From: a virus
Length of the DNA: 64,000 bases
Strand: one strand, 5' to 3'
IMG/VR virus record: IMGVR_UViG_3300024349_000035
Part shown: positions 1,520-60,700 of the stretch, one piece after another
How positions within the stretch are numbered: position 1 is the first letter of the stretch
How the letters are laid out: the number at the start of each line of letters is the position of its first letter
Notes under the pieces: generated by a model
What the model was told of the DNA's origin: nothing
Database searches by the model: none
What the model saw: only the letters and a program-made list of their open reading frames with translations
Made by a program: the position numbers and the translations under genes

Positions 1520-1647
1520 TGAGAAGGGGTCATCTTTCTGTGTAGCTTCCTGTGGAAGATGGGGGAGCCGGACTAGTATCCCCGGCCCTACGCTTGTTCT
1601 AGAATTGCGCGTGCGTATTGCCTAGCCTTTCCACACTGTCCCCCAAC

Positions 1648-1722
1648 GGTAGATGCCGTGCTATCCCGCTTACACCAGACTGCTTACGCGGCATGGGCCT
1701 CGAACCCAAACCTGCATCTACC
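1648..1722 (-). ncRNA. YrlA/Y-RNA-like circularly permuted tRNA mimic
   Basis: Minus strand reads GGTAGATGC-AGGT-TTGGG TTCGAGG CCCAT-GCCGC GTAA GCAGTC-TG-GTGT AAGCGGGAT AGCAC-G-GCATCTACC: 9-bp terminal stem, T arm, loop-closed imperfect acceptor stem, then D arm. Confidence 0.7.
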
Positions 1723-2580: not shown

Positions 2581-3336
2581 CTACTGATCTTCCGAGGTAA
2601 CAATTCTCTGCATAGTCATAAACTGCCGCGCAGGAGCAACAAGCATTTGGGTAAGATGAGTGGCAACCTGGGTACTCAATTGCTGCTTGGTATCGGGTGA
2701 AGACAACAAAAGGATGTTAGCAATTTGAGCCGTTCGCCATGTTTTGAAGCGTGGCGCGTGACTGGTTCTAAAGAGGTCAATACTGGCTTGTGCAGGCGAG
2801 GCATAACTCAAGAGGATAAACACCCCTTTGTCGTTTCCCGTCAACACGTCGAACTGTACCCCTTGCTGTGCGTTCCACGCAGCATCTGGCACTGTAAGCG
2901 AACGTAGATTGGACACCGGAATCTCTGCCGCGACCAGCGAGTTGACTGATTCTTGTGCGCTTGCTGCTAGAAGCGGCACAACTGTTATGGTCGGCAGGAT
3001 CTCAGATGCTTGCCGCACGAGAAAGGCTGTTCCAAGACAGACGGCAACGATCAACAACGCGCTGATACCAATAATCGCCAGTTCTTGTTGTCGGCGGGGA
3101 TAGGATGGCTTTGAAACGGATAGTGTTTGCGCAGAACGAGCGGGAGTAGCTACTGCTGGGGTGCGCTTCGGCTCGATTACTTGTGCGGTGGCTGTTGCGG
3201 ACTGGAGGGACACGCTCGATCTTGAAGCTGAGGGTCGTGTTGTCTGCCGCGTTTCAATCACCCGCAGCATTTCCTGGGTCTTACGCTTCTTGATTTCCTG
3301 GTTCAGCGAGAACTTCTCAGGTTGTTGTACGGTCAT
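2581..3336 (-). CDS. single-pass membrane protein
   Basis: Probable start MTVQQPEK at 3336 (ATGA overlap with the upstream stop); one TM segment LAIIGISALLIVAVCLGTAFLV. Confidence 0.65.
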   Translation of the reverse strand: MTVQQPEKFSLNQEIKKRKTQEMLRVIETRQTTRPSASRSSVSLQSATATAQVIEPKRTPAVATPARSAQTLSVSKPSYPRRQQELAIIGISALLIVAVCLGTAFLVRQASEILPTITVVPLLAASAQESVNSLVAAEIPVSNLRSLTVPDAAWNAQQGVQFDVLTGNDKGVFILLSYASPAQASIDLFRTSHAPRFKTWRTAQIANILLLSSPDTKQQLSTQVATHLTQMLVAPARQFMTMQRIVTSEDQ

Positions 3337-6615: not shown

Positions 6616-8529
6616 ATGAGGTCTAAATTCGCGAAGCACATTAAGACATTCTTGATTGCATTTATGCTAGTATGTTCTATGCTTGTCAGAACATCAACTA
6701 TGACGGCTCAAACATCCGCAAATTCATATCGGTATGCCTATACTCTTCGTCAGCTGGGATCGATAAATATTAATCTTATTGATCCGGAAAACCTTGGCAA
6801 TCCTCCAACTAGTCTAAGTATTCCCATACCATCAAATTATCTAATTGCAAAAGCTTATGCAAGTCCATCTACTGAGTGGATAGCATTATTGTTTAGTATT
6901 CAGGGGTTCCCTAATACTAATATCAAACTGATAAATACTCACTCTAGCGCAATACGTAGCCTTCCTGAATTTTTTTCATTGTCCGATACATCAGGATCAG
7001 GAGAACCAGAACAAATTTTAGCTTGGTCACCTGATAGTCAATATATAGCTTTTCGAGGGAAGCTTGATGATACGCAAGGACAATCTGATATCTATCTGTA
7101 TTCTCTTGCTTCCGATAGTGTTGTCAACCTAACACATGATGCCGCAACACAGTACCAAATTTCATGGTCAAGGGATAGTCACAGCCTAGCTGTATTCAGC
7201 GAACAGTGTTCAGCTACGTGTCAACCAAACATCGATATTTTCAACATCCCATCTACTAATCGACAATCCTCAGTTAATTTGACTTCTCTTATAAGCCTTG
7301 TGTCTACTATGACAGTTCCCAGTCGAACCACACTTTGCCACTTCGATTGGTCTCCCGACGGGCAGTATATCAGTTTCATAATGGGGTGTGGAATAGACGA
7401 CCTGTATTTCTCAGAAATCTATCTTCTAACTGTTGGCTCTGGCTCGCTGACTGCTTTAACAAGTTTTACAACCTCACCTGCACAGTTGGCGCAGGGGCCT
7501 TCGTCAGAATTCTCCACTATGTATGCTCCTTTTTGGATTAATGCAACTACCCTTTTGCTAGGGGCATACATTCAAGAACACGTCTTGGATCAAGTTCAAA
7601 GAACAGTACAACAAACATCTTCCTACACCCCACCCAACAACACTCCCACTATCCTCAACAATGCAATAAATGAAGAATGGTCAGCTAATCCTGTAACAGG
7701 AGAATTAGCTTTACGATCCTTTAGCCTTGATGCAGCAGAAACAGTTCAAAATGCCTCAGTACAGCTTGCAACACTCAATGGATCAATATTGACTGTATCA
7801 AGAAGTATGCAAGCAGGGTGTTCCTTAAGTTGGACGCCAGATGGGAATATCCTATCATATTACGTTCCTTCTAATTCATATATAAGATGCAAAAGCGCAA
7901 ATTTTGCATCATCGTTGATGTTCTTTAACAAAACAACGGGGCAAGTCACAAGCTACTCTACATTAGGGCAAAATCCGTTAGGGATAGGTTGGGTGTCGAT
8001 TTCGCAGGCTGCTCCCACTAACACACCGACCCCAACACCCACCCACACCAATACGCCCGTTCCAAGCACCTTGAAGATGCAATACTTCGCAATGGCAGAT
8101 GAGCGTGGCACAGTCTGGGAAGCCATTGGCCCTGAACTCAACATCGTGAATACGGGTGCGAGTAGCGTTCCCTTAAATCAGTTAAAAGTCCGCTACTACT
8201 TCACCCGCGAAGGCACATCCACGCTGCGATTCGTGTGCTACTACACCGACTTGCCGGGGGGCTGTGGCTCCATCACCAAGCAATTTGTCACGATCACCCC
8301 TGCCGTCTCCGGTGCAGATACTTATCTTGAGTTGGGCTTTTCCAGTGGTACGCTCGCGGCGAACAGCCAGACCGGGGAGATTTACTTCAATATCCATAAA
8401 GCTGACTGGAGCAACTTCGACCAAAGCAACGACTACTCCTTCAACGGAACGTTCACGGATTATACGGACTGGAACAAGATAACGCTGTATCGTAATGGTA
8501 GCCTCGTGTGGGGTGTTGAGCCGCATTAA
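6616..8529 (+). CDS. secreted PD40 beta-propeller protein with Pro/Thr linker and C-terminal CBM3 cellulose-binding domain
   Basis: WSPDSQYIAF, WSRDSHSLA, WSPDGQYISF, WTPDGNIL repeats; PTNTPTPTPTHTNTP linker; LKVRYYFT...ADTYLELGF...DWSNFDQSNDYSF...ITLYRNGSLVWGVEP is a classic CBM3; start placed at the RBS-preceded ATG 6616. Confidence 0.85.
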   Translation: MRSKFAKHIKTFLIAFMLVCSMLVRTSTMTAQTSANSYRYAYTLRQLGSININLIDPENLGNPPTSLSIPIPSNYLIAKAYASPSTEWIALLFSIQGFPNTNIKLINTHSSAIRSLPEFFSLSDTSGSGEPEQILAWSPDSQYIAFRGKLDDTQGQSDIYLYSLASDSVVNLTHDAATQYQISWSRDSHSLAVFSEQCSATCQPNIDIFNIPSTNRQSSVNLTSLISLVSTMTVPSRTTLCHFDWSPDGQYISFIMGCGIDDLYFSEIYLLTVGSGSLTALTSFTTSPAQLAQGPSSEFSTMYAPFWINATTLLLGAYIQEHVLDQVQRTVQQTSSYTPPNNTPTILNNAINEEWSANPVTGELALRSFSLDAAETVQNASVQLATLNGSILTVSRSMQAGCSLSWTPDGNILSYYVPSNSYIRCKSANFASSLMFFNKTTGQVTSYSTLGQNPLGIGWVSISQAAPTNTPTPTPTHTNTPVPSTLKMQYFAMADERGTVWEAIGPELNIVNTGASSVPLNQLKVRYYFTREGTSTLRFVCYYTDLPGGCGSITKQFVTITPAVSGADTYLELGFSSGTLAANSQTGEIYFNIHKADWSNFDQSNDYSFNGTFTDYTDWNKITLYRNGSLVWGVEPH

Positions 8530-12014: not shown

Positions 12015-12269
12015 TCAACTGCGCTGGTCGTCGTCCATAAACGACCAGAAATCGTACAGGTTATGCTCTTCCAGCCGTTCGTGTTCGGCTTTCAGAATGG
12101 CTTGCTCAACGTCCATCACTTCCTGTGGAAGCGCCATGACCTTGCGTGTGTTGGTCGGCGCTGGCGTGCGCGTCACGCTGATCCGGTGGATCACGATCAC
12201 ACATATCCAGAACAGGAACGTGCTGGTCAGAAATGCCGTGAGCATGAGTTTGAGTGTTTCGAGTGTCAT
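12015..12269 (-). CDS. small membrane protein
   Basis: N-terminal TM helix; overlaps the upstream stop. Confidence 0.6.
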   Translation of the reverse strand: MTLETLKLMLTAFLTSTFLFWICVIVIHRISVTRTPAPTNTRKVMALPQEVMDVEQAILKAEHERLEEHNLYDFWSFMDDDQRS

Positions 12270-16794: not shown

Positions 16795-18444
16795 CTAAAA
16801 CGGAATTTCCACAGTCGGTTCGTCGCTGGCGGGCGGTTCTGACTGCTCCGCTGGCTTCTTACCGTTGGGCTTCGGCTTAGGATGCGGTTTAGCTTCCTGT
16901 GGAAGCGGGTTGCCTGACTTGTTCAGCTTATCGAACGCAGTCAGCCGCGCATGATGCTGATCCAAAAACTCCTGTGTCGGCGCTGCGGCAGGCGGGGGCT
17001 TGGGATACTCCATGCCGGGATGGGTCTGCTTCCACTCACGATAGCTGAGTGCCTCGAACATAAATCTGCCGCCGACATGCACGCACTCTACCGTGCCGCC
17101 GCGCCCTGCGCCGTCGCTGTTCTTCTCGACCACCAGCTTGACGAACGGCGACCACTGACCCGGCTCTGCCAGTGTGATCCCATCGACTACAATCGGCTCA
17201 CCCTCCACGCGCTGCGCCTGAATACGGATCAAACCCTGAGCCTTGACCTCAATATCCCGGCTATCCTTCGTACCCGTCCGACCTACCACCTGCCCCTTGA
17301 ATGTCTCGTATTCGGCCTCTTGCGAAGCCAGAAACATGATGGTCTTATGGGCAGGAGACTCAGCGCGGCGCTTGAGAATTTCGACGCTTTCCGATAGAGC
17401 AGCAGCGCGTGTTCCCAAAACTTTCTGCAAGGCCGTTGTGTCCAGCTTCTGCGCGTAGTCAATGAACACAGCATAGGGCTTCATAACAGCGATCTTCTGC
17501 GAAATCCAGGCTGCTGTTGCACCGGGACAATGAATGTACTTGATCTTGCCGGGAAAGCCCTTCTTCATCCGGTACGCCCTCATCATCATGTTGCGCGGAT
17601 CACCGTTGCGGAGTTCCTTCATACTTGCGCTCGTTAGGCGTGCAGCAGCGCGTCGGATAACCCGCTCATGGTCGTCTTCCAGATGAAAGATTGCGATAAC
17701 AGGCTGCGACCCGTCAGGGTTGAGTTTCGCGCCGCGCGCCATACCCTCTGCGATCTGGTGCAAGAGGCTTGACTTCCCGGTAGAGTTCAAGCCCGAAACG
17801 ATGTACAGCAAGCCGGGAATGAGTTCATCAAACATCTCAACCAGCTTGCCCAACTCATAGGGCAGATACGGGGGGACTTCCTTGCGGGCAATGCGATCTT
17901 CCCCCTCCTGCTTGAGTCTGGTGATGAGTTTGAGTTCGCCGTCATCGTCCAACACCTGACTGTCCGCGAAGTCAGGCCGCACCTCGTCCAGCGCTGCGGC
18001 AAGTTCGCCCCACCGAGTATTCGCCGTACCGATGTCGCTGGTAACAATATTCTGCGCCTTCCTGATGAAGTCGCTCTTCATGCGATCTTCGATGTGCAGT
18101 TCATTCAGCGTAGCCGCTGTACCCTGCAACCAGTCCAGCGTGTTACCGCCATGACCCGCCAGCTTGTGTAGCTCTGCCGTAATGGTATCGATCTCGGAGT
18201 TAGCAAGCCCTTCGACAACGATGATCTTGGCGAGAAACTCAGGGGTTGGCGCTTCCCCGGCGTACCGGGGATCGTCGTTCGCCAGTTCCAGCGCCTTGAG
18301 CGTGATCTTGCACACCTGATCGGTGATGAGTTTCGCATCCCAGTTGACGTGCGCCAACTGGCTGTACATGCCCTGTGGACGCTCAGGGGTGGCAATCAAG
18401 CTGCCCACGAATGACCGTTGATTGGGAAGACTGCTCTCGTTCAT
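16795..18444 (-). CDS. DnaB-like replicative helicase
   Basis: Walker A SGLNSTGKSS, IFHLED, FIDYAQKL, FLASQ; Pro-rich C-terminal tail ending in EIPF. Confidence 0.85.
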   Translation of the reverse strand: MNESSLPNQRSFVGSLIATPERPQGMYSQLAHVNWDAKLITDQVCKITLKALELANDDPRYAGEAPTPEFLAKIIVVEGLANSEIDTITAELHKLAGHGGNTLDWLQGTAATLNELHIEDRMKSDFIRKAQNIVTSDIGTANTRWGELAAALDEVRPDFADSQVLDDDGELKLITRLKQEGEDRIARKEVPPYLPYELGKLVEMFDELIPGLLYIVSGLNSTGKSSLLHQIAEGMARGAKLNPDGSQPVIAIFHLEDDHERVIRRAAARLTSASMKELRNGDPRNMMMRAYRMKKGFPGKIKYIHCPGATAAWISQKIAVMKPYAVFIDYAQKLDTTALQKVLGTRAAALSESVEILKRRAESPAHKTIMFLASQEAEYETFKGQVVGRTGTKDSRDIEVKAQGLIRIQAQRVEGEPIVVDGITLAEPGQWSPFVKLVVEKNSDGAGRGGTVECVHVGGRFMFEALSYREWKQTHPGMEYPKPPPAAAPTQEFLDQHHARLTAFDKLNKSGNPLPQEAKPHPKPKPNGKKPAEQSEPPASDEPTVEIPF

Positions 18445-22529: not shown

Positions 22530-23003
22530 TCAGTCTGTGTACTCTTCCGACTGCTTTTCTTCAGCGGCGACCCAATCCGGCACACCATCTTCCACAGGAA
22601 CGATGACAGGCCAGTTGATCGGGTCTTCCCCGTAGCGCCGGATGATCTCGTTCACGAAGTCAACGCCCGCCTTCGTCGGCAGCAGCGTCCGGCTAGATGT
22701 CCCGGTCAGCTTGATTAGCCCTGCGACCACCAGTTCGTCACGGATACGCTTGATCTGGTTAGGCCACTTGAGCGGCGAACCAAGACCGGGGTGTTCCTCA
22801 AGGTATTCGTTGAGCGCACCACGTTCGTCGCGCTCGGAGAACAGGTAGCCCGTTGTCGGCGGGTTGTACATGCTCGGTTTCATTTCATCTGGCACGCCTT
22901 CAAGCTGCTTGGTTTGCTGGCGGTTGTACTGAATCAACAGTGTTAAGGCAATGATGCCCCTGCGGGGTACTCTGATTTGTCCACTGGTCGGTAGTTTGCT
23001 CAC
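22530..23003 (-). CDS. winged-helix-like hypothetical protein
   Basis: IRDELVVAGLIKL...LLPTKAGVDFV wing pattern. Confidence 0.6.
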   Translation of the reverse strand: MSKLPTSGQIRVPRRGIIALTLLIQYNRQQTKQLEGVPDEMKPSMYNPPTTGYLFSERDERGALNEYLEEHPGLGSPLKWPNQIKRIRDELVVAGLIKLTGTSSRTLLPTKAGVDFVNEIIRRYGEDPINWPVIVPVEDGVPDWVAAEEKQSEEYTD

Positions 23004-23152: not shown

Positions 23153-23773
23153 ATGCCAAGAAAACCGAAAGTACCACCGCCTGTTGAGCAGGCATTAGAA
23201 GTTCATGAATCTCCCATGCCGCTCGAAGAAATGAGCGAACGGCTGAGGTCGCTTAACCTCAAGCCGAACGAGTATGGAGATTTCATGAAGGCCGTTGATG
23301 TGTGCGTCCTGCTGCGCCAGGGGCAGACATGGGATCAGGTCAGCGCCGCCGTTGGTGTTCCCAAGCGCACGCTGCAATGGGATCGCTGGCAAAGCCTGAT
23401 TCGCAAGGCTATGACCTACCTGATCGACAGCGAAACCACACAGGTAAGAGCCGCCGAAGCAGCGGCGCTTGCAGAGTGGACAAACATTGTAAATATTCAG
23501 GTACACGTTGCGAAACACGGCAAGCTAGATCGGGATCGCATTGAGGCGGCGAAGTTCCTGCATGAAGCCATCGTGTCGAAGGTCAAAGAGATGCCCGATG
23601 TGTCGTCGCAGAAGAAGTACCTTGAGATGATGAATATGGACCCGACCAAACAATCCAACCAGCACGCGCCGATGAATGTCCTGCATGTGATCCACCATCA
23701 TCAGGCCGACGATCTTCCACAGGAAGATGACGATGCTGACATTATTGATGCAGCGACAGGACAGGTTGAATAA
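23153..23773 (+). CDS. HTH protein, terminase small subunit-like (putative)
   Basis: GQTWDQVSAAVGVPKRTL HTH; DRIEAAKFL helix; acidic disordered tail; the only plus-strand gene in a leftward block. Confidence 0.5.
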   Translation: MPRKPKVPPPVEQALEVHESPMPLEEMSERLRSLNLKPNEYGDFMKAVDVCVLLRQGQTWDQVSAAVGVPKRTLQWDRWQSLIRKAMTYLIDSETTQVRAAEAAALAEWTNIVNIQVHVAKHGKLDRDRIEAAKFLHEAIVSKVKEMPDVSSQKKYLEMMNMDPTKQSNQHAPMNVLHVIHHHQADDLPQEDDDADIIDAATGQVE

Positions 23774-24801: not shown

Positions 24802-27800
24802 CTAATTATACATGCCATACAGATGTTCCCGCCAGATACGGCGGGAATCTGCATCGACCACTTCGGTTACACGCAGGACGGACAGCCGTGCGTCGTGAGG
24901 CCACAGGAAGCCCAAGACCTCTTCCACGTCCGGCACGTAAGGGGCAGGCTCAGGCTCCGGTTCGGGATCAAGTTCGTGATCGTCCGGTACGACCTCCGGC
25001 TCAGGCTCTACGACAGCTTCCGGTGCAGCTTCCACAGGAAGTTCCGGCGCGATCACTTCCGGCTCAGGCCAGTCCATGACCTCAACCACGATCTCCTGAT
25101 CCTCTTCCTGACCGTTCAAGTCCGTGCGCTGGATGAAGTCGCCGTGAACCTGCGCCAGATCAGCAATGCTCGTCGGCTCGAACTCGAAGTCGCGCACACA
25201 CTGAGCCTCTTCCAGTTCCGACAGCGAGAAGTCCCCACCTTCAAACACGAACCCGGCGACCCATCCGGTCAGCAGGTCGGTGTTGTTGACACGTCCCTGC
25301 ACGTACCAAATCCAGTTCGTTTCGGGGTTGTAGATGCGGTAGAGCGCCGGATTGTTCTCGCCCCGCGCCAAATCTTCCAGCGTCGGCAGCGCCGCCCATT
25401 CGTCATCCGTGAGCAGGCGGTAGCGCCCGTCCTCGTGTTCAGCGGCAGCGAAGGCTTCTTCCACCACCTGATCGACACTCGCCGGGATCAGGGCTGGAGC
25501 GTCCTCCACCCACTCCGCATCTACCGTATCCGGTTCAAGGTCGAAGGTGTCCACACGGCGCACCTTGTCCGTGAAGCCGATCCGGTAATCGTCACGCTCT
25601 TCCAGCAGGTCACGGACGTAATCCAAGAACGGGTTGTCTTCTACCTTGCTCTCAAAGAGCGCTTTGTTGTCGTCGGAGAACTGTGGCAGTTCATCCTTCA
25701 ACACCGCCTTACGGACAACCTGTGTGATGTCATCCTGACCCGCCGACAGAGCCGACAGCGCTTCACCCACATTGCCCATGACGACAGCAGCGGCCTTCAT
25801 CTTCTCAGCCATTGCCAGCGCCGCCAAAGCCTGAATGTGGTTGTCCTTCTGGCTCTGGCTCTTGCGGGGGTCTTCCCCGTATGCCCACGTGTGGATGATG
25901 ACCTTCTTGTTCTGACCAGGACGCACCACACGGCGCATCGCCTGAGCGATCACGAACAGGGAACGATGTGGCACGCCGACCAGATGCACGTGGTTGAACA
26001 TGATCAGGTTCAGACCGGTAGCGATCAGTTCGGGATTGCAAATCAGCACGTTGTAATCCCGGTCAACCGCGTCACGGATCGCCGCTTCGCGTTCATCCCG
26101 ATCACAATCGGCGTAGTCTTCCTTCTCGCACCACGTCTTGATCGTCATGTCGCTCTTGGTGGTCAGGACGAACGGCTTGAGTCCGGCTGCTTTGCACATC
26201 TTGTAGATGCTCTTCGCCGCAGGCCGCTTCTGACCAGATACGAAGATGATTGCCCTGTCGCCCAGCGCTGCGTCCTGTGCTATCCTTGCAGCGACTTCCG
26301 AGGTGAGGCGGGGGGCAGGCCAGTCCGCAGAGAACAAGCGTGCCTTGAGCCACACTTCGGTAGTCTTAACCCGGTGTTCCTCGGCGATCTTGAGATACTT
26401 GTCAGCCTCGTCCGCATTGCCTTCGACCATGTACTTCGCCGCGAGTTTCTCGTACTCTTCGACGCGCTCCCGGTCTTTGGGGTGTATCCACGTTTCATCC
26501 TGATCGGGCGCGAGTATCCAGCCGATTGCCGCCTGAATCCACGCTGACAGCTTGGACATATCACCCTTCACCGCGTCAGATGAAGCGTCCTCACGGATTT
26601 TCTTGAGAACATCCATCTCTGGCTGCACTTCGGGGTCTACCGGAACCCAGTGAAACTCGCTCACGGCAGGCGGCAGTTCGATGTTCAGGTCTGCCAAGTC
26701 CATGAAGGTCGCATACGGCAGCAGCCATTGAACGATGTCCGGCATACAGCCGTTGGCTTCGCGCTTGCTGACATGCTCCACGAACGCCTTGCCGCCGAAG
26801 CCCTTGACCCCGGCCTTGACCTTCGCCTTCTGCATGGTGATGTAGATGTCATTGACACCGTACTCGTCCACGAACTTGCTCACCTGATCGTAGCGGTACA
26901 GGCGACGGAACTCCGGTGACATGCGGTGCAGCAGGTAGAACAGGCCGGAAGCCTTGCCGTTGTAGATCGTCCCGGTCAGGCCGAGCGTCCACTTGCTGTT
27001 CGTCGCCAGCTTGCCCATGATCATGCCCCTAGAACTGTCTCCACTCTTAAAAATTTGAATCTCGTCCGCGATCAGCGCGTAGCGCCGAGCGTAGCGGGCG
27101 GCAATGTATTCCCCGATGCTGGCGCGCGCCGATCCGGTCTTGGCCTCGACCAGTTCGCCCTTCTCGAAGTCGTAGTTGGGCTTGAGGGTGAACCGACGCA
27201 CGTGCTTCCCGGTAGACAGGGCAATGGTTTCTGCCTCAAACTGCTCCATGTTGTCACCGAACCGGGTGAAGCTGAACATGGGCGTGCCGCACGCTTCATC
27301 CTTGCGGGCAGGCTGCACCACTTCCATGCTGATCGCCTGCCACTCGATATTCTTCCCGGTGCTGAGGTACTTCGTACCGGGACGGTACTCGACCATGCGC
27401 GGCGACCCATCATCATTGAACAGCGGTTCGCCCGTCTTCACGTCGATGTCCTGTACGAACTCGACGTTGGCAGGCACGCGCACTTCCACAGGAAGCACTT
27501 CCATCATGACCCGCCCCTCTTCGTCGTACTCACGCCTGGTCTGCACGGTGTTTTGACAGAACAGCTTCTGGCGGTTGGCGGGCCGCTTCTCGTAGTGGAC
27601 GAACGGATCGTCAATGATGTCGCCCTTGCTGGTTTTGATGATGTGGATGCCGCCGCAGGTCGGGCAGGTCATCACCGGTTCTTCCGCCAGCGCCCGCGAC
27701 ATGACTTCGCGCTTGTGTTCCAGCTTCGGCACAAAGCTGTACCGCCAGGGCGCACCCAACTTGGCGTGAGTCTCCGACAGGATCAGGATACCCAACCCCG

Positions 27801-32517: not shown

Positions 32518-32548
32518 TTGTGCTATACCTTTCTGCTTCCTGTGGAAG

Positions 32549-34925: not shown

Positions 34926-35187
34926 AGAGCCGTAGCCCGTCAATCACCGCCTGCCCCACGTCATGAATGTCGCTTCCTGTGGAAGCAACCACGATGTACG
35001 AATACTGGTATGCGCTCTGTTGCGACAGGAGGGTTACACTCCCAATCATACACAGGCAAGCGCTCACTTCGCCTGCGCAATCGATCTGGTAGGTGCGCCG
35101 ATCCAGCTTCACGATATGATACCCGCGCCCTACCACTTCCTTCGGTTCACCTTTACCGGGTAAACCCATAATTGATCTCAGTTCCAT
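34921..35187 (-). CDS. hypothetical protein
   Basis: GGAGGG RBS; 88 aa. Confidence 0.55.
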   Translation of the reverse strand: MELRSIMGLPGKGEPKEVVGRGYHIVKLDRRTYQIDCAGEVSACLCMIGSVTLLSQQSAYQYSYIVVASTGSDIHDVGQAVIDGLRLC

Positions 35188-35900: not shown

Positions 35901-36353
35901 CTACGATCCGCTTCCTGTGGAAGCTGGCTTGGGAATGAACTCTAACCCACAGTTCGGACAACGGTAGTACGCATCCCCGATCTCATCTTCATGCAGCGCA
36001 TGGGCTTCGATCAGGCAACCACACCCCGGTTCATGCTGCCACTCGCCGTTCGCATCCAGATAATCATCATCGGGACAGCGCACGAAGCCCCCCGGTTCAC
36101 TTCCTGTGGAATCACGGCGGCGTTCAAAATGCTGCCGGAAGAGGTCGGCCTGTATTTGCTGCTTGCGGCATTCAATCCACATGCGTTCCGCGAAGGTGCG
36201 GGCCTGTTCATCCTCTTCCCGTTCATCCAGTTCATGCCACACCGGACTCCAGAAGAAGTCATGCTTGCCATCAGGGAACGTGACGCGGTACTGGCTCGAC
36301 GCAATGCTGTACACCAGCCCGGACGCTCTACCTTGATGTATTTCTGCGACCAT
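35901..36353 (-). CDS. hypothetical protein with C-terminal Zn ribbon
   Basis: CGC...YRCPNCG; overlaps the 36011-36625 frame, so boundaries are uncertain. Confidence 0.5.
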   Translation of the reverse strand: MVAEIHQGRASGLVYSIASSQYRVTFPDGKHDFFWSPVWHELDEREEDEQARTFAERMWIECRKQQIQADLFRQHFERRRDSTGSEPGGFVRCPDDDYLDANGEWQHEPGCGCLIEAHALHEDEIGDAYYRCPNCGLEFIPKPASTGSGS

Positions 36354-36625
36354 TCACGTGTCAGCCGCCGCAGGACTGCCCACTCATCCTCATCAGTAGC
36401 AATGCTCATCATCTGTGTCGCGCCATCAGGGTAGGTGATCTTGTACAGCAGATGGCCTTCCGGCTGCCCACCGTACTCATCATCTATAAGCTGCATCATC
36501 ACGCCGAGGTCATTCGTCTTGACCTCATAGCCCAGTGTGGGATCATCCGCTTCGGGGTCAAGCGTCAGATGCACATGCGCTTCCTGTGGAAGCTGCTCAA
36601 GCTGCTTCGGCTCTTTCTTGTACAA
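36011..36625 (-). CDS. hypothetical protein (only the 5' half looks coding)
   Basis: TTG start; protein-like up to about 36350, then overlaps the better-looking 35901 frame. Confidence 0.35.
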   Translation of the reverse strand: MYKKEPKQLEQLPQEAHVHLTLDPEADDPTLGYEVKTNDLGVMMQLIDDEYGGQPEGHLLYKITYPDGATQMMSIATDEDEWAVLRRLTREWSQKYIKVERPGWCTALRRASTASRSLMASMTSSGVRCGMNWMNGKRMNRPAPSRNACGLNAASSKYRPTSSGSILNAAVIPQEVNRGASCAVPMMIIWMRTASGSMNRGVVA

Positions 36626-36888
36626 CGGATGAGACCCGCCGCCCGCTTGCCCTTCCCCGTAATCTGCACGATCTTCACTTCCATAGGAAGCTCACCTATC
36701 GGCGTATCCGTCACCGTGATCTCATTCGCAGCAAGTAGAGGCCATTTCACCGGAGCAGGCAAATCCCACGCTTCCGGTGTCTGGAACAACGTGTCGAAAT
36801 CTTCCGGCGTGGTGTTGATCACCATCGGTTCACTCCGGTACTGGATGTCCTCAATGTCATGGATCACCACGCGATTCTCCGGTAACAT
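36565..36888 (-). CDS. hypothetical protein
   Basis: 107 aa; the last ~20 codons overlap the next frame. Confidence 0.5.
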   Translation of the reverse strand: MLPENRVVIHDIEDIQYRSEPMVINTTPEDFDTLFQTPEAWDLPAPVKWPLLAANEITVTDTPIGELPMEVKIVQITGKGKRAAGLIRCTRKSRSSLSSFHRKRMCI

Positions 36889-37723: not shown

Positions 37724-38707
37724 CTACTTGACGAAGCCCTCAACGTAGTCCAGCGCGGGGGCGATCAGGTCAACCACTTCGGTATCTTCCTCGTACTTCT
37801 TGACCGAGCAGTTCTGGCAGGTGCATTTGCGGGCCACATGCACCAGCTTCGCCACGTTGATGCTCTTCCCCGGCTTGATGTTCATGATCTCAGCCAGGAG
37901 CGTAGCAGTCTTCTCGGTCAGGCTGTCGAACTCGCGTTCCGTGTACACGATGCCGATCAGGTTCGGGATTTCTTCCCCAATCGCCTGCAATGCGCCGATC
38001 TTGAGCAGGAAGTGAACCAGACCGCAAGCGTCGTTGTGCTTGTTGTCGAACCCGTCTGTCCAGCGCACATGCTTCGGGGCAGCAGGCTTGGCGGGCAGCT
38101 TCTTGATCTGCGGCTTGACCTGAACCTTCTGCTGCTGCTTGCGGGGCGCGGGGCTGGTGGTGCGACGCGCGGGCTGCTGCTTCTGCTTCTTGCTTCCTGT
38201 GGAAGCGATCTGCTTGCGGGTAGAGGCGGTGCGCTTGGCCTGCTTCTTCTCGATGGGCTGCGTGCCACGCCCGATGTCCTTGTTGCGGAACGCGATCACG
38301 AAGCCGTTGATCGCTTCCTTGCTGACATGCACGTGCATCGAGCCGAGCGTGTTCATGGCGTTGAAGATCGCCTGCTTGTTGTGATCGCCGCCCTTGAGGA
38401 CATACGCCTTGCACGCGGCGTACAGCGAACGGAACGCATTGCGGGTACGGGGATTGCGTTCAGCGTTCATGGCGTTCCAGAGCGTGCCAGCATCGTTGAT
38501 GTAGGACTCGGACACGTTGCCTGCACCCTTGACGAAGTTCCCGTTCTTCATCTGTTCTCCATTCTGGCGGTCACGTTCTGCCCGTTCCCGAATCTTGTTC
38601 GCGTCCACCATGTGCTTGAGCTTGTAGTTGGTCGCGGCTTTGCTGTTGGTGTTGGCGGGGGCAGTCTTCTTGGCATTGCGATTGAAGATATTGGCAAAGA
38701 ACGTCAT
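37724..38707 (-). CDS. hypothetical protein with Lys/Gln/Pro-rich basic linker
   Basis: Start MTFFANIF after GGAGG; central KKQAKRTAS...KKLPAKPAAPK segment. Confidence 0.7.
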   Translation of the reverse strand: MTFFANIFNRNAKKTAPANTNSKAATNYKLKHMVDANKIRERAERDRQNGEQMKNGNFVKGAGNVSESYINDAGTLWNAMNAERNPRTRNAFRSLYAACKAYVLKGGDHNKQAIFNAMNTLGSMHVHVSKEAINGFVIAFRNKDIGRGTQPIEKKQAKRTASTRKQIASTGSKKQKQQPARRTTSPAPRKQQQKVQVKPQIKKLPAKPAAPKHVRWTDGFDNKHNDACGLVHFLLKIGALQAIGEEIPNLIGIVYTEREFDSLTEKTATLLAEIMNIKPGKSINVAKLVHVARKCTCQNCSVKKYEEDTEVVDLIAPALDYVEGFVK

Positions 38708-40846: not shown

Positions 40847-41090
40847 TGCGAGACACTCCTTGTACAGAACAGACAGATAGGGTCAGAGAACAACAGCACG
40901 GTGATATGCGTATGAGACATATCGGTGTGTGTTGTAGTGGGTATTGGCCTGCGGGTACGCCCGACCTATGGCCTCAAGGAATCATTCATGTTCCTGCTCT
41001 CTACCCTGCTTCCTGTGGAAGCAGAACAGAGAGCAGAACAGGTGCTTTCGCACCTGCCCATTGCAGTATTCGATTGTTAGATGTGATAAG

Positions 41091-41457: not shown

Positions 41458-41479
41458 ACGCACTGTGCTTGAGGGCTAT

Positions 41480-41830: not shown

Positions 41831-41899
41831 TCCCCTACCCTCCACTCATGCGAACCCACCTGTGCAGTACAAGACTGCACAACGCTCTGAGCCTAAGGG

Positions 41900-42802: not shown

Positions 42803-42977
42803 GGCGTGGCTGGCTGACGGACAGGGCAGCACGGTCACGGTGGGGAAGTCGGTATACATGGCGCTCCGCGACAATGACGGGGTGTACTTCATTCGCAAGG
42901 GTGAGAGGGGCGACGTGTTCAAAGACTCTTACGGCAGCACGTCATGGAACTTCAACCGGGACAAGAGTGATCAGTAA
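42753..42977 (+). CDS. hypothetical protein
   Basis: TAATG overlap with the TerL start. Confidence 0.55.
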   Translation: MSGRIVYGSEDFEGIYRAWLADGQGSTVTVGKSVYMALRDNDGVYFIRKGERGDVFKDSYGSTSWNFNRDKSDQ

Positions 42978-47167: not shown

Positions 47168-47260
47168 CTTCCACAGGAAGCGAAAAGTTGTCACTCCTAG
47201 TGAGACAGTCCGTTGGGAATATAGAGCCTGACGTAATTGTTTCATTAGGAGTGTTTTGTC

Positions 47261-47986: not shown

Positions 47987-48396
47987 ATGACACTTGGCGA
48001 TTTCGACAGTTACTACGGGCAATCGCCCTGGGACAACCTTGAACTGAACCAGCGCCAGTGGTACGACCCGTACCTGCTGGACGTGTGGCGCAAGCACAAT
48101 GTCTACGGGCAGTTCACGACCTTCGTGCAGAACTTGGCGAACCGCAATGCCAAGACGATGACCTTCAACGGTCTGTACGACATTCACCCCAACACGGACG
48201 CACTTGGCTTGCGTACTATGTGGCTTGATGCAGCATGGGTCGATTCTTTCCAGATCGACATCACGTTTAGTCGCTACGGTGGAAAAATCTCTTATCATCG
48301 CTATGACGATCTAATTACATATTGGCGTGACGGGGGTGGCTCTGAGAAGGGTGTCATCCGGCGCGTCCTGAATGGTAAGCTGGGAAGACAAATGGT
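47987..48396 (+). CDS. major capsid protein, exon 1
   Basis: Follows the scaffold gene; the frame runs into the intron after ...LGRQM-GT. Confidence 0.8.
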
Positions 48397-49329: not shown

Positions 49330-50269
49330 GGATGTTTTCGACCTGCTCTCGCGTAACGCGCTCCTGTCTGTCCCGTACAAGCGCTACGCAGTCGGGCGCA
49401 GCGACTTCAACAGCATCACCGTCACCGACAAGTTCTCGATCCCGATGCTGGATGACATCCACCTCGGCATGTCATATCGAGATGTACCCTACGCGAGTTC
49501 GCCAAGCGGCGACGTGGGAACGATTGTCGGCATCATCTCGCCCGGTGTCTTCTACGACATCCAGCGCAATTCCAGCGACAAGGATTGGTTGATCCCGATG
49601 GCGTACTCGCGTCCGGTCAGCCTGCTCCGCTATGAAGTCGGGACGTATCGCAACGTCCGCTGGATCGTCACGCCGAAGCAGACCTTGTGGAATACGGGCA
49701 GCATCACCGAACAACGGACGATCACCAGCAGCGCCGTTGCGGGCGCAGGTTCGCCATCCACGAAGGTCGATGGCGTGTACCGTGTGGGTCAGACCAGCGC
49801 GGCGAAGTACCTGCAACTGGACGCAGGGCCAACCGACATTATGGCGAACGACATCATCACGATCCACAAGACGCGCTCGAACACCAACGGTGTCACCAAC
49901 GGTGTTGACTACACCGAAGGCACGCTGATGAATCGCCGCGTCATCTCCGTCGATACGGTCAATCACCGGATCACCCTGGATCAGCCGATCATGGTAGATT
50001 TCGACACCGACCTCGGCGGCGGTGTGTACGGCTATGTGACGAAGGGCGTTCATATCCACGCTAGTACCTTCATTGGTGGGCCGGACGCAATCGTGACAGG
50101 GGTTGGTAGACCAGTTGAGTTGCACACGCCTCCGCCCGTCGATGACTTCGACAGCGTGTACAGGTACAGTTGGGATTCTTATCTTGGTCATCAAGTTTAT
50201 AATCCCAAAGTAGCAGAAACCGTCTTCTCGGCTGGCTCCGTCCGTATGGTTGGCGAGATGCTCCAGTAG
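49330..50269 (+). CDS. major capsid protein, exon 2 (spliced product 449 aa)
   Basis: GIISPGVFYDI, YEVGTYRNVRWI, DDFDSVYRYSW HK97-fold-like patterns; beta-rich inserted domain. Confidence 0.8.
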
Positions 50270-54385: not shown

Positions 54386-54717
54386 TAACGGCTCTCCAAA
54401 GCCTTGAAGTTGACATTCTTGCGTACCTGAACGCTCAACTCAGCGCTTCCACAGGAAGCAAAGCCTCGCAATTCCTGTGGGACGCTGAGAATAAACAAGC
54501 CGTAATCCCCGACGCTTTTCTCCTGTACCGCAAGATGCAACTGTTTGGCGGGCCGAAGTCCCTCCCCCTCCCGGTAGAAGGCGGTTGGTACGACCAACCA
54601 TACCTGACGTGTTTAACGCTGGAGTCCTGCAAGAAGGCTGAAACATTATTCGAGTTGCAGTTAAAGGCACAGGTAGAAGCACCCAAAGATGGCTCTGTAC
54701 AACGCCCTGACGAGTAG
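54376..54717 (+). CDS. -1 frameshift extension of the tail chaperone (GT)
   Basis: GGGGGAA at 54376-54382; the -1 frame is open through IVTALQSLEV...LPVEGGWYDQPY to TAG at 54717. Confidence 0.78.
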   Translation, partial: GGIVTALQSLEVDILAYLNAQLSASTGSKASQFLWDAENKQAVIPDAFLLYRKMQLFGGPKSLPLPVEGGWYDQPYLTCLTLESCKKAETLFELQLKAQVEAPKDGSVQRPDE

Positions 54718-57700
54718 AATTGATGAGGTCAATCGCCGCCTGAATGACCAGTTTCAGAGCGGTACGATCACCGATCAGATGTTCCGCCGCTACCAGTTGG
54801 GATCAGGCGCTGATCCTGATGATGTACTGCGTTCGCTGTCGGCTGTCGGCAGCATGGAGCGTTCCCCGCAGCGCTGGCGGCGCGAGTCTGAACTGATCGG
54901 GCAGCGCAACGAAGCCACGCAGAACTTCTACCAGCAGGTGCTTTCCCCGATTGCCGATCAGTACAACGCCTCCGGTCAGGGGACACTTCGGTTCGATCAG
55001 GTAGATACGTTCGGCTCAATGGCCTACCGCGCCACCATGTACAAGCCCGGTGGCGAAGTGGCGTGGAGCGCGGACGTGTCTGCCCTTGCGCCGTTTGGAC
55101 GGGATCGGCAAGACCCCAACAATGTCGGGCGCATGGTCATCGGCAACCGCGTGGTCGATGTGGATGTGCCGATGGGCGGCTTTGAGAACCCGGCGAACAA
55201 GACGACGCAGTACGGCCTTGCCCAAAGCCTTCTAACCAGCTTCAACAGCCCGTACAAGTCCAGCGCCGTGCGGATCGACGGGCGCGACAAGGACTTTCAG
55301 GGCAATTACCTGAACCCGTTCGACACGGCTTCTGACAGTCCGTTCTATTCGCGCATCTCACAGAGCAACCGCGTTTCGCCCAATGTCTTCCTGACTCCGA
55401 AATACCGGGGCAGCACGATTGACCTGAACGCCTATGTCGGACAGACGGGCGGCGAACTGAACCCGCTCCTCGTCAGCTTGCAGAAGCAGGGCTACACCCA
55501 CCTTGCCGGGTACGATGATTACCTCGGCAGCGATTACACGCTCCGGCAGGGTACGCACACCATCTCTAACCAGTCATTTCTTGACATTCCCGGCTGGTAT
55601 CAGGGAGAAGATGGCAAGCTGTACACCGGGATTGGCAATGACCCGCTCAAGGCCATGTCCAAGTCCGGTCAATTGGGCGGCACACGTGAGTCCGCCAACT
55701 ACGGGCCACAGGCCGGTACATTCGCGGAGTGGCAAGAAGGCAACGTGCGTACCGCAGGCTCTAACGTCCTGACGGGCGGCTACAAGGAGCGCACGTTCAT
55801 TGCCCTGACGGGCATGGGTATCGGTGAAGGGCAGGGGCTTGTCAATACGAACCGTGCTGGCACGATTTGGGAACGCCGCCAGCAGCGGGTAGAGGTTGGC
55901 CTTGATGCGAACGGCAACCTGATGCTGGATCGGGACACGCAAAGCCTGATGACGCAGCTACAGGGCGGGCAGCAGGTGAGCGCAGGGCGCAGCGTGTGGG
56001 ACATCTCCGGTAAGCGCGTGAACTTCGCCGGATCGTGGGGTGACGCGACCCTGATGGGTGTCCAGACCGACATCCGTGAAACCGACAAGGGCAAGCGCGG
56101 CTATCTGGTCTTTGACGTGATGCGATCCGGCGCTGAAATGTCCACCAAGAGCGCAGGTACAAAGTCCTTTGATGTACGGGAAGATTTCGGCGCGTTCGGT
56201 GATGGGTGGGATCGGTTTGACCGGATCATTACCAAGCCCAAGAACCTGAATACCTTCGCCGCCAGAGTGTTCGATGCTATGAGTGACGACCAGTTCCGGT
56301 CTGTCATGGCAGAACACAGCCGCAAGTTCGGCAACCCGCAGAACGTCGATCTATCGCAGGGCGCAGTCGAAAACGGTGTGTACATCCCGGCGCGGCATGG
56401 TTCGCAGGCGACCCCCTACCTGATGGACGTGTTCCGTAAGACCATCGTGCCAAGTGCGCTTGAGATGCGTACCATGCACCGCAACTTCGATGAAGCCTTC
56501 TTCGACAATGTGATGGGTGTGGATAATCCCTGGGTGAAGGAACTGGGGCGGGCAAACGGTCAGGTATCAGTAGAAATGACCGTACCCGGCCTCAATCTGG
56601 AGATGCTGGTCAACAAGTCGCCGGAACTCTCACGCGGCGGCGGGCGCATGAACTTTGAGGACATCACGAACCGTCTGTGGCTGGCAGACAAATCCGGTGA
56701 CACTGTTGCGCGGGATGTACTGGGCAGCTTGTTTAACGGCGGGCAGGCCGCACGGATAGATGTGGCAAAATCTGCCATGTTGTCTGACAAGACCGCGCAG
56801 CAGTACATGGAAACGCCCACCAACACCTTTGCTCTGTCGGGGATTACGCAGCAGCAGCGCGAACGCTACCGCGACGTGGTGCGCTCCATCGGTACGGATG
56901 CGTCCGAGCCGAATGTGATGGCACAGCAGCTTGCCGCGCTCCAAGAGATCGTCGGGGACAACCTGATCGACACCGGAACAGGGACATTTCTACCCTCGCC
57001 GGATGTGATGGGCAAATTCTCCGTTGCCAGCGCCAATCGGCAGCAGAGTAATTACGTGCGCCAGTATGCCAGCGTAATGCACGAAGCCATGATGAGTGAC
57101 GAGGCGCTTCCTGTGGAAGCGTTTGATAAGGTCTACCGGGCGCAGGCCAAACTCGCCAAACAATCCGGCTTCCGCAAGAACATTCTGAGCAACCGCAATC
57201 AGGCCGTGTTTGGCAATGTCTATACCAGCGACCAGTTGCTTGCGCCGAACCAGATGGTTATGCGCGAGAGCGAGATCGTGACCCGCCTGCACAAACTGGC
57301 GCAGAACGAAGGGGTCGATGCGACCAAAGACGAAATCAAGGCAATGCTGGCAGAGATGCGGGCGGGCGGCGAAGGGCTATCTGCCTATGTCGAACGCAAC
57401 CCGGTGTCAGAAGGCCACACGCAGCGGGCGCTCACCCTGCAAATCCTGAACGAACAGGAATACAAAGCAATGGGCGGCACGAAGCGAGTAGGCCGTTCGC
57501 CCATTGTCTCAGATTACTTCGCTTACGCATCGGGCGGCGACGTGGACGCTGACCGTCTGATGGGTATCTTCGCCGCGTCGATCAGCCGCGATCAATCCGG
57601 CAAGCTGACCGCACAATGGGGCGACGTGACCAGCAATGATCGGATGAAGACCATTGCAGCCGGGAGCGTGGCTGGCGAACTCATGAAGCACATTGCTGAA

Positions 57701-60700
57701 CAGCGCGGCGACGATGTGCTGGCTGGCATGAAACCAGCCGACATCCAGCGGATCATCCAGAACAAGGATGTGGGGGCGCTGGCAGATTTGCTCATTGCGC
57801 CGGACGGGATGCTGAACAGCCGCAAGAAGGCCGAAGGTATCGACATGCAGGACTTGGCGGGTGCGTCACGCCGCCTGCAAACCGCGAAGTCTAACATGGG
57901 CATGGCTTACAACCTGGGGCGTATGCTCACGCCGAACGCAATGGCGAACGAAGAATCGTATACCGCCGCCAGTAAGTTCATGGGTGCGCTCTACCAGCCC
58001 GCGCTCGACAAGGAGTTTGTCAAGGGGACGGACGACACGATGAGCAGCAGGGCGCGTGACCTGATGAAACTGATGAAGACGAACCTCGTCACAGGCAGTT
58101 TCTTTACTGGCTATGACACCAAGCCTGAGTCGTGGCCCGGTATGAAGTCCGGTTCGTACCGCGCCGCCAACCGGAGCGCGGCTGAGAACATCCCTGAGTT
58201 TGCATCACGCACGGTCAAGTCGCTCCTGTCGGCTACGGAGATGGCAGGCGATCCAGACTCGATTGCCGCCCTGCTCACACCAAGCTATGCCAGCGACGAT
58301 ACCAAGACCAGCATCCGCGAGAGCGTGGAACTGGGTCTATCCTACGCCGGGGACAAGAATCTGGATGCTGATGCAATCGACGCAGGGGTAACGCAGGCGG
58401 CAGATGCGATTATTGCGGCAATCGGTGGGGATGCAGGCTCTATCCAAGCGGCTGAGAACCGGATCGGGGCAGATAAGATTAACGCCGTGACCTCCGACTC
58501 TCGACGCGCCGGGTACGTTGCGGCGCTGTCCGATGCCCCCATCCTCGAAACCATTATGTCGGCGGCGGGCTTGCACACGCAGCGGGCAGACAAGAACCGG
58601 GCGTTCATCGGCAAGGGCAGACCGGATAACATCGTCAACTCCATCATCGGCGCGTTGGGGCAGGAAGGCTCTATCCGTGAGAGCATCGTCCGTGCTGTGT
58701 CACGCGGCGCGAAGATGGATACGGTAGCTGATCTGACCCGTACCCTGATGCAGATGCGGGCAGGGTTCGCACAACAGAAGGGTGGCGCAGCGGCAGCGCA
58801 ATATGTGGATTCGCTGCTCGGTCAACTCGGCATGAACCTCAATGACGATGGTCTGGTGGCACAGGCGGCATCTGAAAGTCTGAATAGCTACCGGGCTTCT
58901 CGCACGGCACGCTCCAAGCAGTCCCGCGAACAATACGAAGCGCGGATCGCCAGCCAGCAGCAGCGGCTATCCGGCATGAACCTCGGCGCAGGGATCGATG
59001 TACTGGGCGCAATTCACGGCGCGTCAAACATCAACTTCGGCAACGTGTCGTTCAGCCCGTCATCTATCGGTAAGCCCGAAAGCCTCTTCCTGACGGGTCT
59101 AACTGGCTCTGGCTTGATGGATATTCCAGTCAAGGGCGGGGGCGGATCAGGCTCAGGGGTAGAGTTCGGGTCGAAGGTTCACGGCATTGCCGAACGCGCC
59201 TTCGGGCAGGATGCAGAATTGGAACAGCGCTACGGCAAGCGCATCCGGCATGAGTTCGGTGTACAGGGTGAACTCGGCGGGGTGAAGTGGGCGGGCCGCG
59301 CCGATATGCTGGCAGACCAGAACGGCAAGCGTGTTCTGTACGACATCAAATCACACGGCGCGGGTGGGATCAACCCCGACCTGATGGAACACTATCAGGC
59401 GCAGATGGAACTCTACGGGCATCTCATGACCAACGCCGGGGAACAGGTCGATGAGATGGCGATCATCCCGGTAGACCGCGAGAAGTATCAGGAGAAGTAC
59501 GATGAACTGATACAAGGCTCTGGCCTGTCCGAAGAAGAGATGCAGAATATCGCGCTCCGTGAAGCCTCTGGTGCGCCGATACCCGTTCCCTTCACACCGG
59601 GTCAGGTATCGCCGCAGCTACAGGGGATGCTTGATCAGGTGAAGGGTATCTCTGACCTCATTGGGGCAGATGCGGGGCGCGTGCGCCTGAACAATAATGC
59701 GAAGGCAACGCCAGCAGACCGCAAGGCAGCGCTGGCGAACGTCCATCAGGTCTTGGCAAAGGTCGGCGCAAGTCTGCCCGATGGCGGGTCGGCAATGGGT
59801 TTGCCCAAAGCTGAACTCGCACAGGGTCTTGCTTCGCCTGCTGTGCGCCAGCGGCTAGGGATCAGTCCCGACTCGCATCCCGAATTGGGTGATCTGCTGG
59901 CGAACGCGGGTAACGGCGGCGCTGGTTCTGGTGGCGGCGGGGTAGCTTCCACAGGAAGCGTCGATCCGTCTTCCGGTGGCGGCGGCTCTGGTGGCGGTGG
60001 GAACAATAACAATCTCGTCCTCGCTTTGCAAGATATGGTGCAGCAGCTATTTGACCGTCCCGCCGCGCCAATCCGCGAAACGGCGCTATCAGACACCAAG
60101 CGTACCATCGGCACGCTCAGACCGCAGTCCGGCTTCAAGACGCTCGATGCTGAACTGGCGCACTACAAGGCGCAGGCCGACAAAGGTACGCTAACCAAGC
60201 CGATGATCCAGCGCATCAAGGCCATTGATCAGGCTATGCGCAAGGGGATTAGCCTTGAAGATTCAGCCGGAAAATGGAAGAGCCAGAACGACCCGATTGG
60301 GCAACAGGTGTTGGGGGCGTTGTCCGGCAATGAAGGTATGTCAGCCGCCCGCGCCCATCTACTTGACATGGATGCGCAGGGTACATCCGATTTCAGCAAG
60401 CCCGGTTTGCTCGATATGGCGGTGGAACAGGAGCAGTCACAGCGGCTAACGGCGGGCGAGAAGGCGCTGGCGCGGGAAAGCCAGCGGGACATTGACGCTG
60501 AAACAAAGCGGCTGGAACGGCTGGAAGTCATGCAAGCGCCGTATATGGCACGCACAGATCGGGATACGATGCTGCAAGACCTTCAATCGCGGGTCATGGA
60601 AACCGACGAAGGGACTGCCCTCACGTCGCATGAACAGCGCTTGATGAAGGTGCTTCAAGCCGCCAATGCGCGGGAAGATGCGGGTGTCAAGAAGCTGGCA

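Follow-up and report, generated by a model that had tools for sequence, protein, structure and literature searches.

What does a 13-bp inverted repeat do when a phage carries it in genes and gene gaps on both arms of its genome? The question arises from a 64,000-nucleotide (nt) stretch, here called the window, of the IMG/VR virus record IMGVR_UViG_3300024349_000035. This 79,856-bp record comes from an uncultivated temperate phage of a bioreactor, and the word CTTCCACAGGAAG recurs in it on both strands. An initial annotation had described the word as a short hairpin and listed a tail-fused phage RNA polymerase, a repressor, and a methyltransferase-helicase among its possible readers. Here, we report that the word is under selection as nucleic acid and that related phages carry different words of the same dyad design. 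We tentatively propose that these words are sites in duplex DNA for a dimeric, phage-encoded binder that would act at operators or roadblocks.

Copies of the word in genes and gaps

A recount of the window returned the 16 exact copies of CTTCCACAGGAAG reported earlier, at the same positions on both strands. It also returned three one-mismatch copies (at 22589, 36100, and 36678), where the initial annotation had listed two near-exact ones. The whole record has 22 exact copies, three with one mismatch, and four with two mismatches; six of the exact copies lie outside the window, four of these in one repetitive fiber-like gene. The word is by far the commonest 9- to 16-mer of the record. Dinucleotide shuffles of the window predict 0.04 matches, and none of 100 shuffles reached 19. 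Enrichment also survives the shuffling of synonymous codons with all proteins kept (n = 500), which yielded 0.14 coding copies, with a maximum of 2, versus 19 observed. Moreover, the word encodes most of the peptides that it can spell, namely, four of the five LPQE, five of the six LPVE, and eight of the nine STGS peptides in the proteome. Because of the excess over shuffles and the origin of these peptides, it can be concluded that selection acts on DNA or RNA and not on protein, as the initial annotation had argued from the three frames LPQE, (A/T)STGS, and LPVE, all of which were found again by translating the copies.

Information in the flanks is limited to position −1 (G at 15 of 22 sites) and position +13 (C at 19 of 22). 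The extended form is thus (G)CTTCC-ACA-GGAAG(C), with arms of 5 to 6 bp around a 3-bp center, and the full 15-mer is present at 13 of the 22 sites. The word holds about 26 bits and occurs at a density of approximately one copy per 3.6 kb. A search of 596 Gb of prokaryote genomes with the 15-mer gave only scattered single chance matches among the 120 matches listed, which is weak evidence. Insertion of a mobile 15-bp unit was ruled out as the source of the copies, as evidenced by a 159-amino-acid (aa) protein in which, compared with its orthologues, the word arose by substitutions and a two-codon indel.

Curated gene models were used to assign the 22 exact copies to coding or noncoding DNA. Five are noncoding, and the 17 within open reading frames (ORFs) are translated as (A/T)STGS (10 copies), LPQE (four copies), or, in antisense, LPVE (three copies). 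The sites are found on both genome arms, between and within genes, and when coding, they fall mostly in protein tails or linkers. For example, the (A/T)STGS copies include a C-terminal tail, a Gly/Ser linker, the frameshift extension of a chaperone, and the four copies in the repetitive fiber gene. A cargo block at 2.6 to 9.4 kb had been singled out for its lack of copies. The block is indeed empty, but this is not significant, as about 1.9 copies are expected there and the probability of finding none is ~0.15.

Strand counts require some care in their interpretation. Nineteen exact copies are sense and three are antisense, and an earlier tally of 14 of 18 copies with ACA on the transcribed strand could be taken for a functional signal. 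Most of this bias is accounted for by coding tolerance. STGS is allowed in proteins, whereas its antisense reading SCGS, which contains a cysteine, is absent from the proteome, so that the 10 STGS copies can only be sense. Where both readings are tolerated, LPQE and LPVE stand at 4 to 3. The antisense copies, three exact and two near, compare with ~0.002 expected by chance. Given these copies and the 4:3 balance, the site seems to work, or to be selected, in either orientation, and an orientation dependence is not supported.

The copies in the window are as follows. Two of them begin at the first base after a TAG stop, as noted previously.

1546..1558, minus strand: exact; noncoding, downstream of a tRNA-like array unit; a 92-aa basic zinc-ribbon ORF (1241-1519, minus) follows after 26 nt
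12119..12131, minus strand: exact; upstream region of the actin-like partition ATPase gene, with an ambiguous gene model (read as LPQE by an 84-aa ORF on the minus strand or as FLWK by a 142-aa ORF on the plus strand)
16893..16905, minus strand: exact; sense, LPQE, C-terminal tail of a DnaB-like helicase, a tail missing from the orthologue in relative G005
22589..22601, plus strand: one mismatch (last base C); antisense in a 157-aa gene, VPVE
23714..23726, plus strand: exact; LPQE near the 3′ end of a plus-strand 212-aa gene for a helix-turn-helix (HTH)-like protein, at the convergent junction with the leftward early operon
25029..25041, plus strand: exact; antisense LPVE near the 3′ end of the 1618-aa methyltransferase-helicase gene, within a 33-bp stretch missing from relative L210
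27483..27495, plus strand: exact; antisense LPVE in the middle of the methyltransferase-helicase gene, where L210 has no site
32536..32548, minus strand: exact; noncoding, first base after a TAG stop, ending 18 nt before the ATG of a DUF3846 gene
34973..34985, minus strand: exact; sense, ASTGS in an 88-aa ORF, ~35 nt upstream of a promoter-like GTTAGCT...CTAAC motif
35911..35923, minus strand: exact; sense, C-terminal tail PASTGSGS-stop of a 150-aa ORF
36100..36112, minus strand: one mismatch (first base A); sense, DSTGS, in the 150-aa ORF that also holds the 35911 copy
36580..36592, minus strand: exact; sense, read either as LPQE, opening one ORF, or as FHRK, within the tail of an overlapping upstream ORF
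36678..36690, plus strand: one mismatch (center ATA); antisense, LPME
38193..38205, minus strand: exact; sense, ASTGS in the middle of a 336-aa ORF
41009..41021, minus strand: exact; noncoding, in a ~245-nt gap of the early operon, where it forms the apex of a longer, imperfect inverted repeat ~70 nt downstream of a GTTAGCT...CTAAC motif
47168..47180, plus strand: exact; noncoding, starting at the first base after the TAG of the portal gene
54446..54458, plus strand: exact; sense, ASTGS in an open frame that extends the tail-chaperone gene (frameshift product), with a partial inverted copy 11 nt after it
57107..57119, minus strand: exact; antisense LPVE within the 3475-aa giant tail gene
59946..59958, plus strand: exact; sense, ASTGS in a Gly/Ser linker of the giant tail gene

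At 35900 to 36900, three overlapping minus-strand ORFs (107, 204, and 150 aa) have a repeated "Y-K/R-I/V-T-Y/F-P-D-G" segment in common, and the frame seems to change among them, for which two genes, a frameshift, or a sequencing error are all possible. Two exact and two near copies of the word are found within 800 bp of this region.

Dyad words of related phages

Relatives were collected as contigs of 50 to 90 kb from portal homologues with 30 to 48% identity, the nearest homologue having 48% identity only; they have the same synteny and the giant tail gene. Three of these loci (L040, L041, and L042) are identical sequences. None of the relatives carries CTTCCACAGGAAG, and each has a dyad word of its own. 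Words were counted as solid only with at least 8 copies per locus or at least 12 per genome. This threshold was set since the first control loci had been selected by motif and were thus biased, and high-GC controls reach 4 to 7 copies of some 11-mers. The words, counted in whole records for G001 to G005, are the following.

G001 (L075): AGAACCGGTTCT, 17 copies in 54 kb
G002: GGGAAWTTCCC, 15 copies in 24.7 kb
G003: TGGGAATTCCCA, 12 copies in 48 kb
G004: TTCTGCSGCAGAA, 24 copies in 69 kb
G005 (complete, with terminal repeats): TTCGGCRYGCCGAA, 17 copies in 90 kb
L004: TTCGA-N4-TCGAA, 9 copies in 21.7 kb
L058: TTCCGTSACGGAA, 5 exact 11-mer cores

Further dyad words were found in L005, L017, L025, L026, L048, and L085. 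The words of the family are 11 to 14 bp long, with 0 to 4 bases at the center, and some are perfect, even-centered palindromes. Nine of 15 words start with TTC and end with GAA, and ends shared in this way by most words suggest that their readers are related. The odd-centered words of G002 and G004 show no consistent orientation.

A closer relative is L210 (ENA contig_61227), which has ~73% DNA identity to this phage over 6.3 kb and a wholly different word, AGCCCSGGGCT. As a contig, L210 is an inverted-duplication assembly whose first half mirrors its second; it has many broken ORFs, and only ~9 kb of it are unique. At the 3′ end of the plus-strand 212-aa gene, where transcription units converge, this phage, L210, and G005 each have their own word at the same spot, while the remaining sites in the stretch aligned with L210 are not shared. 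Because three phages keep their own word at the same convergent junction, the conserved site points to a direction-independent function at the boundaries of transcription units. The lineage-specific words, in turn, point to a site set that is quickly exchanged as a whole once its reader changes, through either coevolution of binder and sites or their swapping as a module, as is the case with immunity specificities.

Placement in the family follows a recognizable pattern. Across six genomes, 22 of 107 sites lie 10 to 35 nt upstream of a plausible start, versus 7.8 expected. Sites are enriched in short intergenic gaps, often right behind a stop codon or abutting, on its 5′ side, the Shine-Dalgarno sequence of a small early gene, and many others are in the middle of genes. 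All six genomes have their sites spaced more evenly than random (Fisher combined P ~0.003), with this phage at least as even as random. Orthology analysis of the six genomes by BLAST and phmmer identified only structural genes and SSB as widely shared, and genes just downstream of sites showed no homology across genomes. The presence of the giant tail gene was also tried as a correlate of word presence, which was uninformative given that nearly all relatives have the giant gene.

These comparisons bear directly on whether a hairpin or a sequence is conserved. The 15-mer of this phage has a folding energy of −4.2 kcal/mol as DNA and −6.7 kcal/mol as RNA. For the words of the family, the energy as DNA is 0 to −4 kcal/mol; as RNA, the G001 word has no stable fold (0 kcal/mol), the other words are marginal, and several fold no better than shuffles. 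Among variant copies, compensatory stem changes are absent in this phage, G001, G004, and G005, and the only paired changes are in the outermost pair in G002 (three sites) and in one inner pair in G003. Taken together, the varied centers, weak folds, and missing compensatory changes indicate that a sequence with dyad symmetry, rather than a structure, is what is conserved.

Reading of the sites and its rivals

As a leading possibility that may well prove wrong, we propose that the words are dispersed sites in duplex DNA for a dimeric, phage-encoded binder and that they serve as operators or roadblocks. Under this proposal, each of the ~20 single sites along both arms would be read as a duplex by a dimeric phage protein. 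The sites would occupy gene gaps where there is room, often 5′ of a ribosome-binding site or after a stop, and would otherwise be accommodated in tolerant tails and linkers. The bound protein would constitute a genome-wide network of operators, roadblocks, or insulators, at which transcription by any polymerase, in either direction, would be stopped or dampened at unit boundaries, including the convergent junction. Binder and sites would coevolve or be exchanged as a module in each lineage, like immunity specificities. From sequence, we infer the protein binding, the dimer, and the roadblock role. A recognition site for a phage protein, with a stoperator-type repressor among the candidates, had already been suggested in the initial annotation, and this part of the suggestion stands as probable; the part involving a polymerase hairpin does not, for reasons discussed below.

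The closest precedent comes from Cluster O mycobacteriophages (Corndog and relatives), which have 34 copies of a 17-bp dyad, TGTTCGG-NNN-CCGAACA, without orientation, ~40% of them intergenic and the others within genes or close to their 5′ ends; the authors predict a dimeric binder, and the function is unexplained (PMC4351075). As in the phage described here, invariant arms surround a 3-bp center, and tens of single copies (at least 30 in a ~70-kb siphovirus for Cluster O) are distributed genome-wide, between and within genes and mostly away from promoters. The two systems differ in that their hosts and phage families are unrelated, the arms are 5 to 6 bp here versus 7 bp, the center is an invariant ACA here and variable in Corndog, and a larger share of copies is intragenic here. 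Also, the word differs in each related lineage here, whereas five Cluster O genomes share one.

Stoperators offer a second precedent. In Cluster A mycobacteriophages, these sites for L5 gp71 and related repressors are 13 to 14 bp long, with 20 to 30 copies dispersed over both arms, in gaps and some genes; they silence by blocking elongation, and their specificity coevolves with the repressor between lineages (PMC9283540, PMC6550527). The length and the dispersed distribution on both arms are alike. Unlike the dyadic sites described here, which occur in both orientations, stoperators are asymmetric, follow the direction of transcription, and have a monomeric repressor as their binder. A homologue of the stoperator-type repressor was not found in this phage by Pfam, PHROGs, and HTH_3 searches. 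The KorB operators (OB) of the IncP plasmid RK2, like the ParB-parS and Noc-NBS systems, use palindromes of 13 to 16 bp, some of them odd centered, in ~10 to 70 dispersed copies. KorB/ParB-type sites are also found within genes, and their dimeric reader exerts its effect at a distance. The design is similar, but no ParB_N protein was detected here, and the partition system of the phage is actin-like (type II). Six-frame searches with PF02195 also gave no match in G002 to G005 and a subthreshold match only in G001.

Several results weigh against a dimeric binder of duplex DNA. No candidate for it was identified in this phage: Pfam and PHROGs searches of ~70 proteins revealed no DNA-binding family and were blank for almost all early proteins. 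Six-frame searches of the record, which is ~80% complete, were negative for ParB_N (PF02195), HTH_3, LexA_DNA_bind, and tyrosine integrase. The 212-aa HTH-like protein (window 23135-23773, plus strand; weak HTH match) was rejected as the specificity determinant because its HTH segment is nearly identical in L210, recognition helix included, even though the L210 word differs. In the complete relative G005, no integrase was detected, and so a role in immunity repression cannot be general. All five clearly noncoding copies have ACA on the transcribed strand (two-sided P ~0.06), a weak hint that some orientation-dependent or RNA-level role is still conceivable. In addition, the ACA at the center never varies, whereas a spacer that is not contacted usually would.

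Some leads toward a reader nevertheless come from the relatives. In G001, two small LexA_DNA_bind-like ORFs (7510-7707 and 2739-3082, both minus) are each directly preceded by AGAACCGGTTCT, the half-site of which is GAAC. The half-site of the Gram-positive LexA box is also GAAC. As candidates for a dimeric winged-helix reader that regulates its own gene, these ORFs are the strongest lead. G004 has a weak CopG-like ORF behind a site. In this phage, the 92-aa basic zinc-ribbon ORF and the DUF3846 gene lie just behind noncoding sites and may be regarded as leads only.

An unlikely alternative is that the same duplex sites are bound by a phage protein in an architectural or self-marking role rather than a transcriptional one. 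They could anchor or load a spreading clamp in the style of KorB or ParB, mark DNA for condensation or packaging, or set phage DNA apart from that of the host, so that the nuclease and polymerase arriving with the giant tail protein can distinguish the two. In line with this idea, single sites extend over both arms, structural genes included, with a spacing more even than random; most positions differ between relatives; and the giant tail protein, with its PD-(D/E)XK nuclease domain, is conserved across the family. Cluster O authors, too, judged most of their sites not to be associated with promoters (PMC4351075). Nevertheless, ParB_N was found in neither this phage nor the complete relative G005, and some relatives have the giant tail gene without an obvious word. 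A purely architectural role is also at odds with the enrichment of sites at the edges of genes and right before ribosome-binding sites in early clusters, and the conserved site at the convergent junction fits transcription control better.

Recognition at the RNA level, by a sequence-specific RNA-binding protein or endoribonuclease acting on a short stem-loop of the transcripts, appears rather improbable. Such an element could separate cistrons, stabilize ends, or gate translation beside a ribosome-binding site, and it would agree with the shared orientation of the five noncoding copies, the −6.7 kcal/mol fold of the 15-mer, and the position of some copies at the apex of longer inverted repeats. 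Words of relatives often abut a Shine-Dalgarno sequence or directly follow a stop codon as well, but adjacency to ribosome-binding sites is forced when a 13-bp word must fit into a 25- to 35-nt gap. Furthermore, the three exact antisense copies and the many mid-gene copies would be useless or harmful as RNA elements. The exact sequence is kept and stem covariation is missing, and the G001 word is unfolded as RNA, with several others no better than shuffles.

The hairpin proposed in the initial annotation, with a 5-bp stem and a 3-nt loop read by an N4-like or tail-fused RNA polymerase, is very unlikely. According to this idea, a single-stranded DNA hairpin (5- to 6-bp stem) would be extruded and serve as a promoter or terminator for a phage RNA polymerase proposed to reside in the N terminus of the giant tail protein, as with the virion RNA polymerase of phage N4. 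N4 virion RNA polymerase uses three oriented hairpin promoters at one end of the genome. The stem and loop geometry of the word matches these promoters, and copies cluster in the early region of small genes. In contrast to the N4 promoters, however, the word is genome-wide, in both orientations, and largely intragenic, with copies in late genes, mid-gene, and antisense. The relatives have centers of 0, 1, 2, or 4 bases, including perfect, loopless palindromes, which provide no direction and no constant loop, and DNA folding energies are marginal to zero. Additionally, in G001, G003, and G005, only 11 to 17 nt separate word and ATG, which leaves little or no room for a leader before the ribosome-binding site.

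The case for a tail-fused polymerase draws on Thermus phage P23-45, since the phage studied here has the same genome layout and also has a giant tail gene. The giant tape-measure protein of P23-45 starts with a virion RNA polymerase, and the many repeated promoters of that tail-fused enzyme are AT-rich, asymmetric, and confined to a pre-early cluster (bioRxiv 10.1101/2022.12.01.518664). The word described here is instead GC-balanced, dyadic, and dispersed, and a match to the P23-45 system is not supported. The repeated hairpin-plus-T-run elements that P23-45 has in its pre-early region resemble ordinary intrinsic terminators. As for the polymerase itself, the N-terminal 1200 aa of the giant tail protein have neither a sequence match to solved structures nor a Pfam match.

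A second motif makes a better promoter candidate than the dyad word. GTTAGCT-N6-8-(A)TCTAAC has ~9 copies, which are always intergenic and on the transcribed strand, shortly before a ribosome-binding site or ATG. This motif, too, is an inverted repeat, with 5-bp arms separated by ~10 nt, and may be a phage-specific promoter or operator. Its starts in the window are as follows.

42204, 41095, 39372, 34925, 31338, 9987, 2510, and 167: minus strand
50278: plus strand

It is a long shot that the words are self-marks read by the giant tail protein itself, delivered with the virion and carrying the proposed polymerase and the PD-(D/E)XK nuclease domain. Such marks would set the phage genome, whether incoming or replicating, apart from the DNA of the host and of rival phages, thereby steering or restraining the injected enzyme, and the fast switching of words would reflect an arms race of related phages in the same host.

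The least probable reading is that a DNA methyltransferase or other modification enzyme targets the word, which has accumulated, through methylation-linked selection or biased repair, in the manner of HIP1, the palindrome that is iterated within cyanobacterial coding sequences in several frames. The phage does encode a 1618-aa DUF6094 methyltransferase-helicase, but 11 to 14 fully specified positions (~26 bits) are far above usual methyltransferase specificity, one copy per 3.6 kb is far sparser than iterated palindromes, an invariant, asymmetric ACA center is atypical of a target, and the part of the methyltransferase-helicase visible in L210 (which does not cover the N-terminal methyltransferase domain) is ~73% identical, with an entirely different word.

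Genome setting and significance for the family

IMG/VR classifies the record as "provirus," with a completeness of ~80%, and the sequencing runs that contain the phage are DNA runs only. The left arm is transcribed leftward and has early and replication genes, among them those for RecA-like, DnaB-like, and SSB proteins, the actin-like partition ATPase, and the DUF6094 methyltransferase-helicase. The right arm is transcribed rightward and encodes a terminase with an intein, an SPP1-type portal, capsid and tail proteins, and the 3475-aa giant tail protein with its PD-(D/E)XK nuclease domain. Temperate features are present in the form of the "provirus" class, the partition ATPase, and a large serine recombinase, located as follows.

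G000:C1:1-1712, left of the window at the edge of the provirus record, minus strand: large serine recombinase, ~564 aa (Resolvase domain, E = 1e-17)

Upstream of the recombinase, an intrinsic-terminator-like hairpin with TTTT comes first and is followed by a dyad site 41 nt before the recombinase ATG. Long perfect hairpins, of which one has a 15-bp stem, occur in the gaps between the first early genes (window 41380-41470 and 41850-41900, minus). Their flanks share the blocks AGGTGGG and GAGTGGAGGGTA right before start codons, and they form another repeated element of the early region. On the right arm, the large terminase (window 42977-45172) has a length of 731 aa versus ~615 aa in relatives, with an intein match (Intein_splicing, E = 8e-12). 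The capsid gene (window 47987-50269) is in two pieces of 142 and 319 aa, both of which match a single, uninterrupted 460- to 470-aa gene of relatives. A minus-strand 230-aa ORF lies between the pieces, consistent with the intron proposed in the initial annotation.

Genome-wide dyad repeats within phage genes were described in Cluster O mycobacteriophages in 2015 and have never been explained. The family described here provides a rich comparative series for this problem, with at least 15 lineage-specific words of one design, most of them with TTC...GAA ends. The question of the reader is made testable by the pair of phages with 73% identity, a swapped word, and a kept junction site, together with the LexA-like lead. 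If the sites are indeed polymerase-independent roadblocks, they would also explain how silencing can reach a phage even when it supplies an RNA polymerase of its own.

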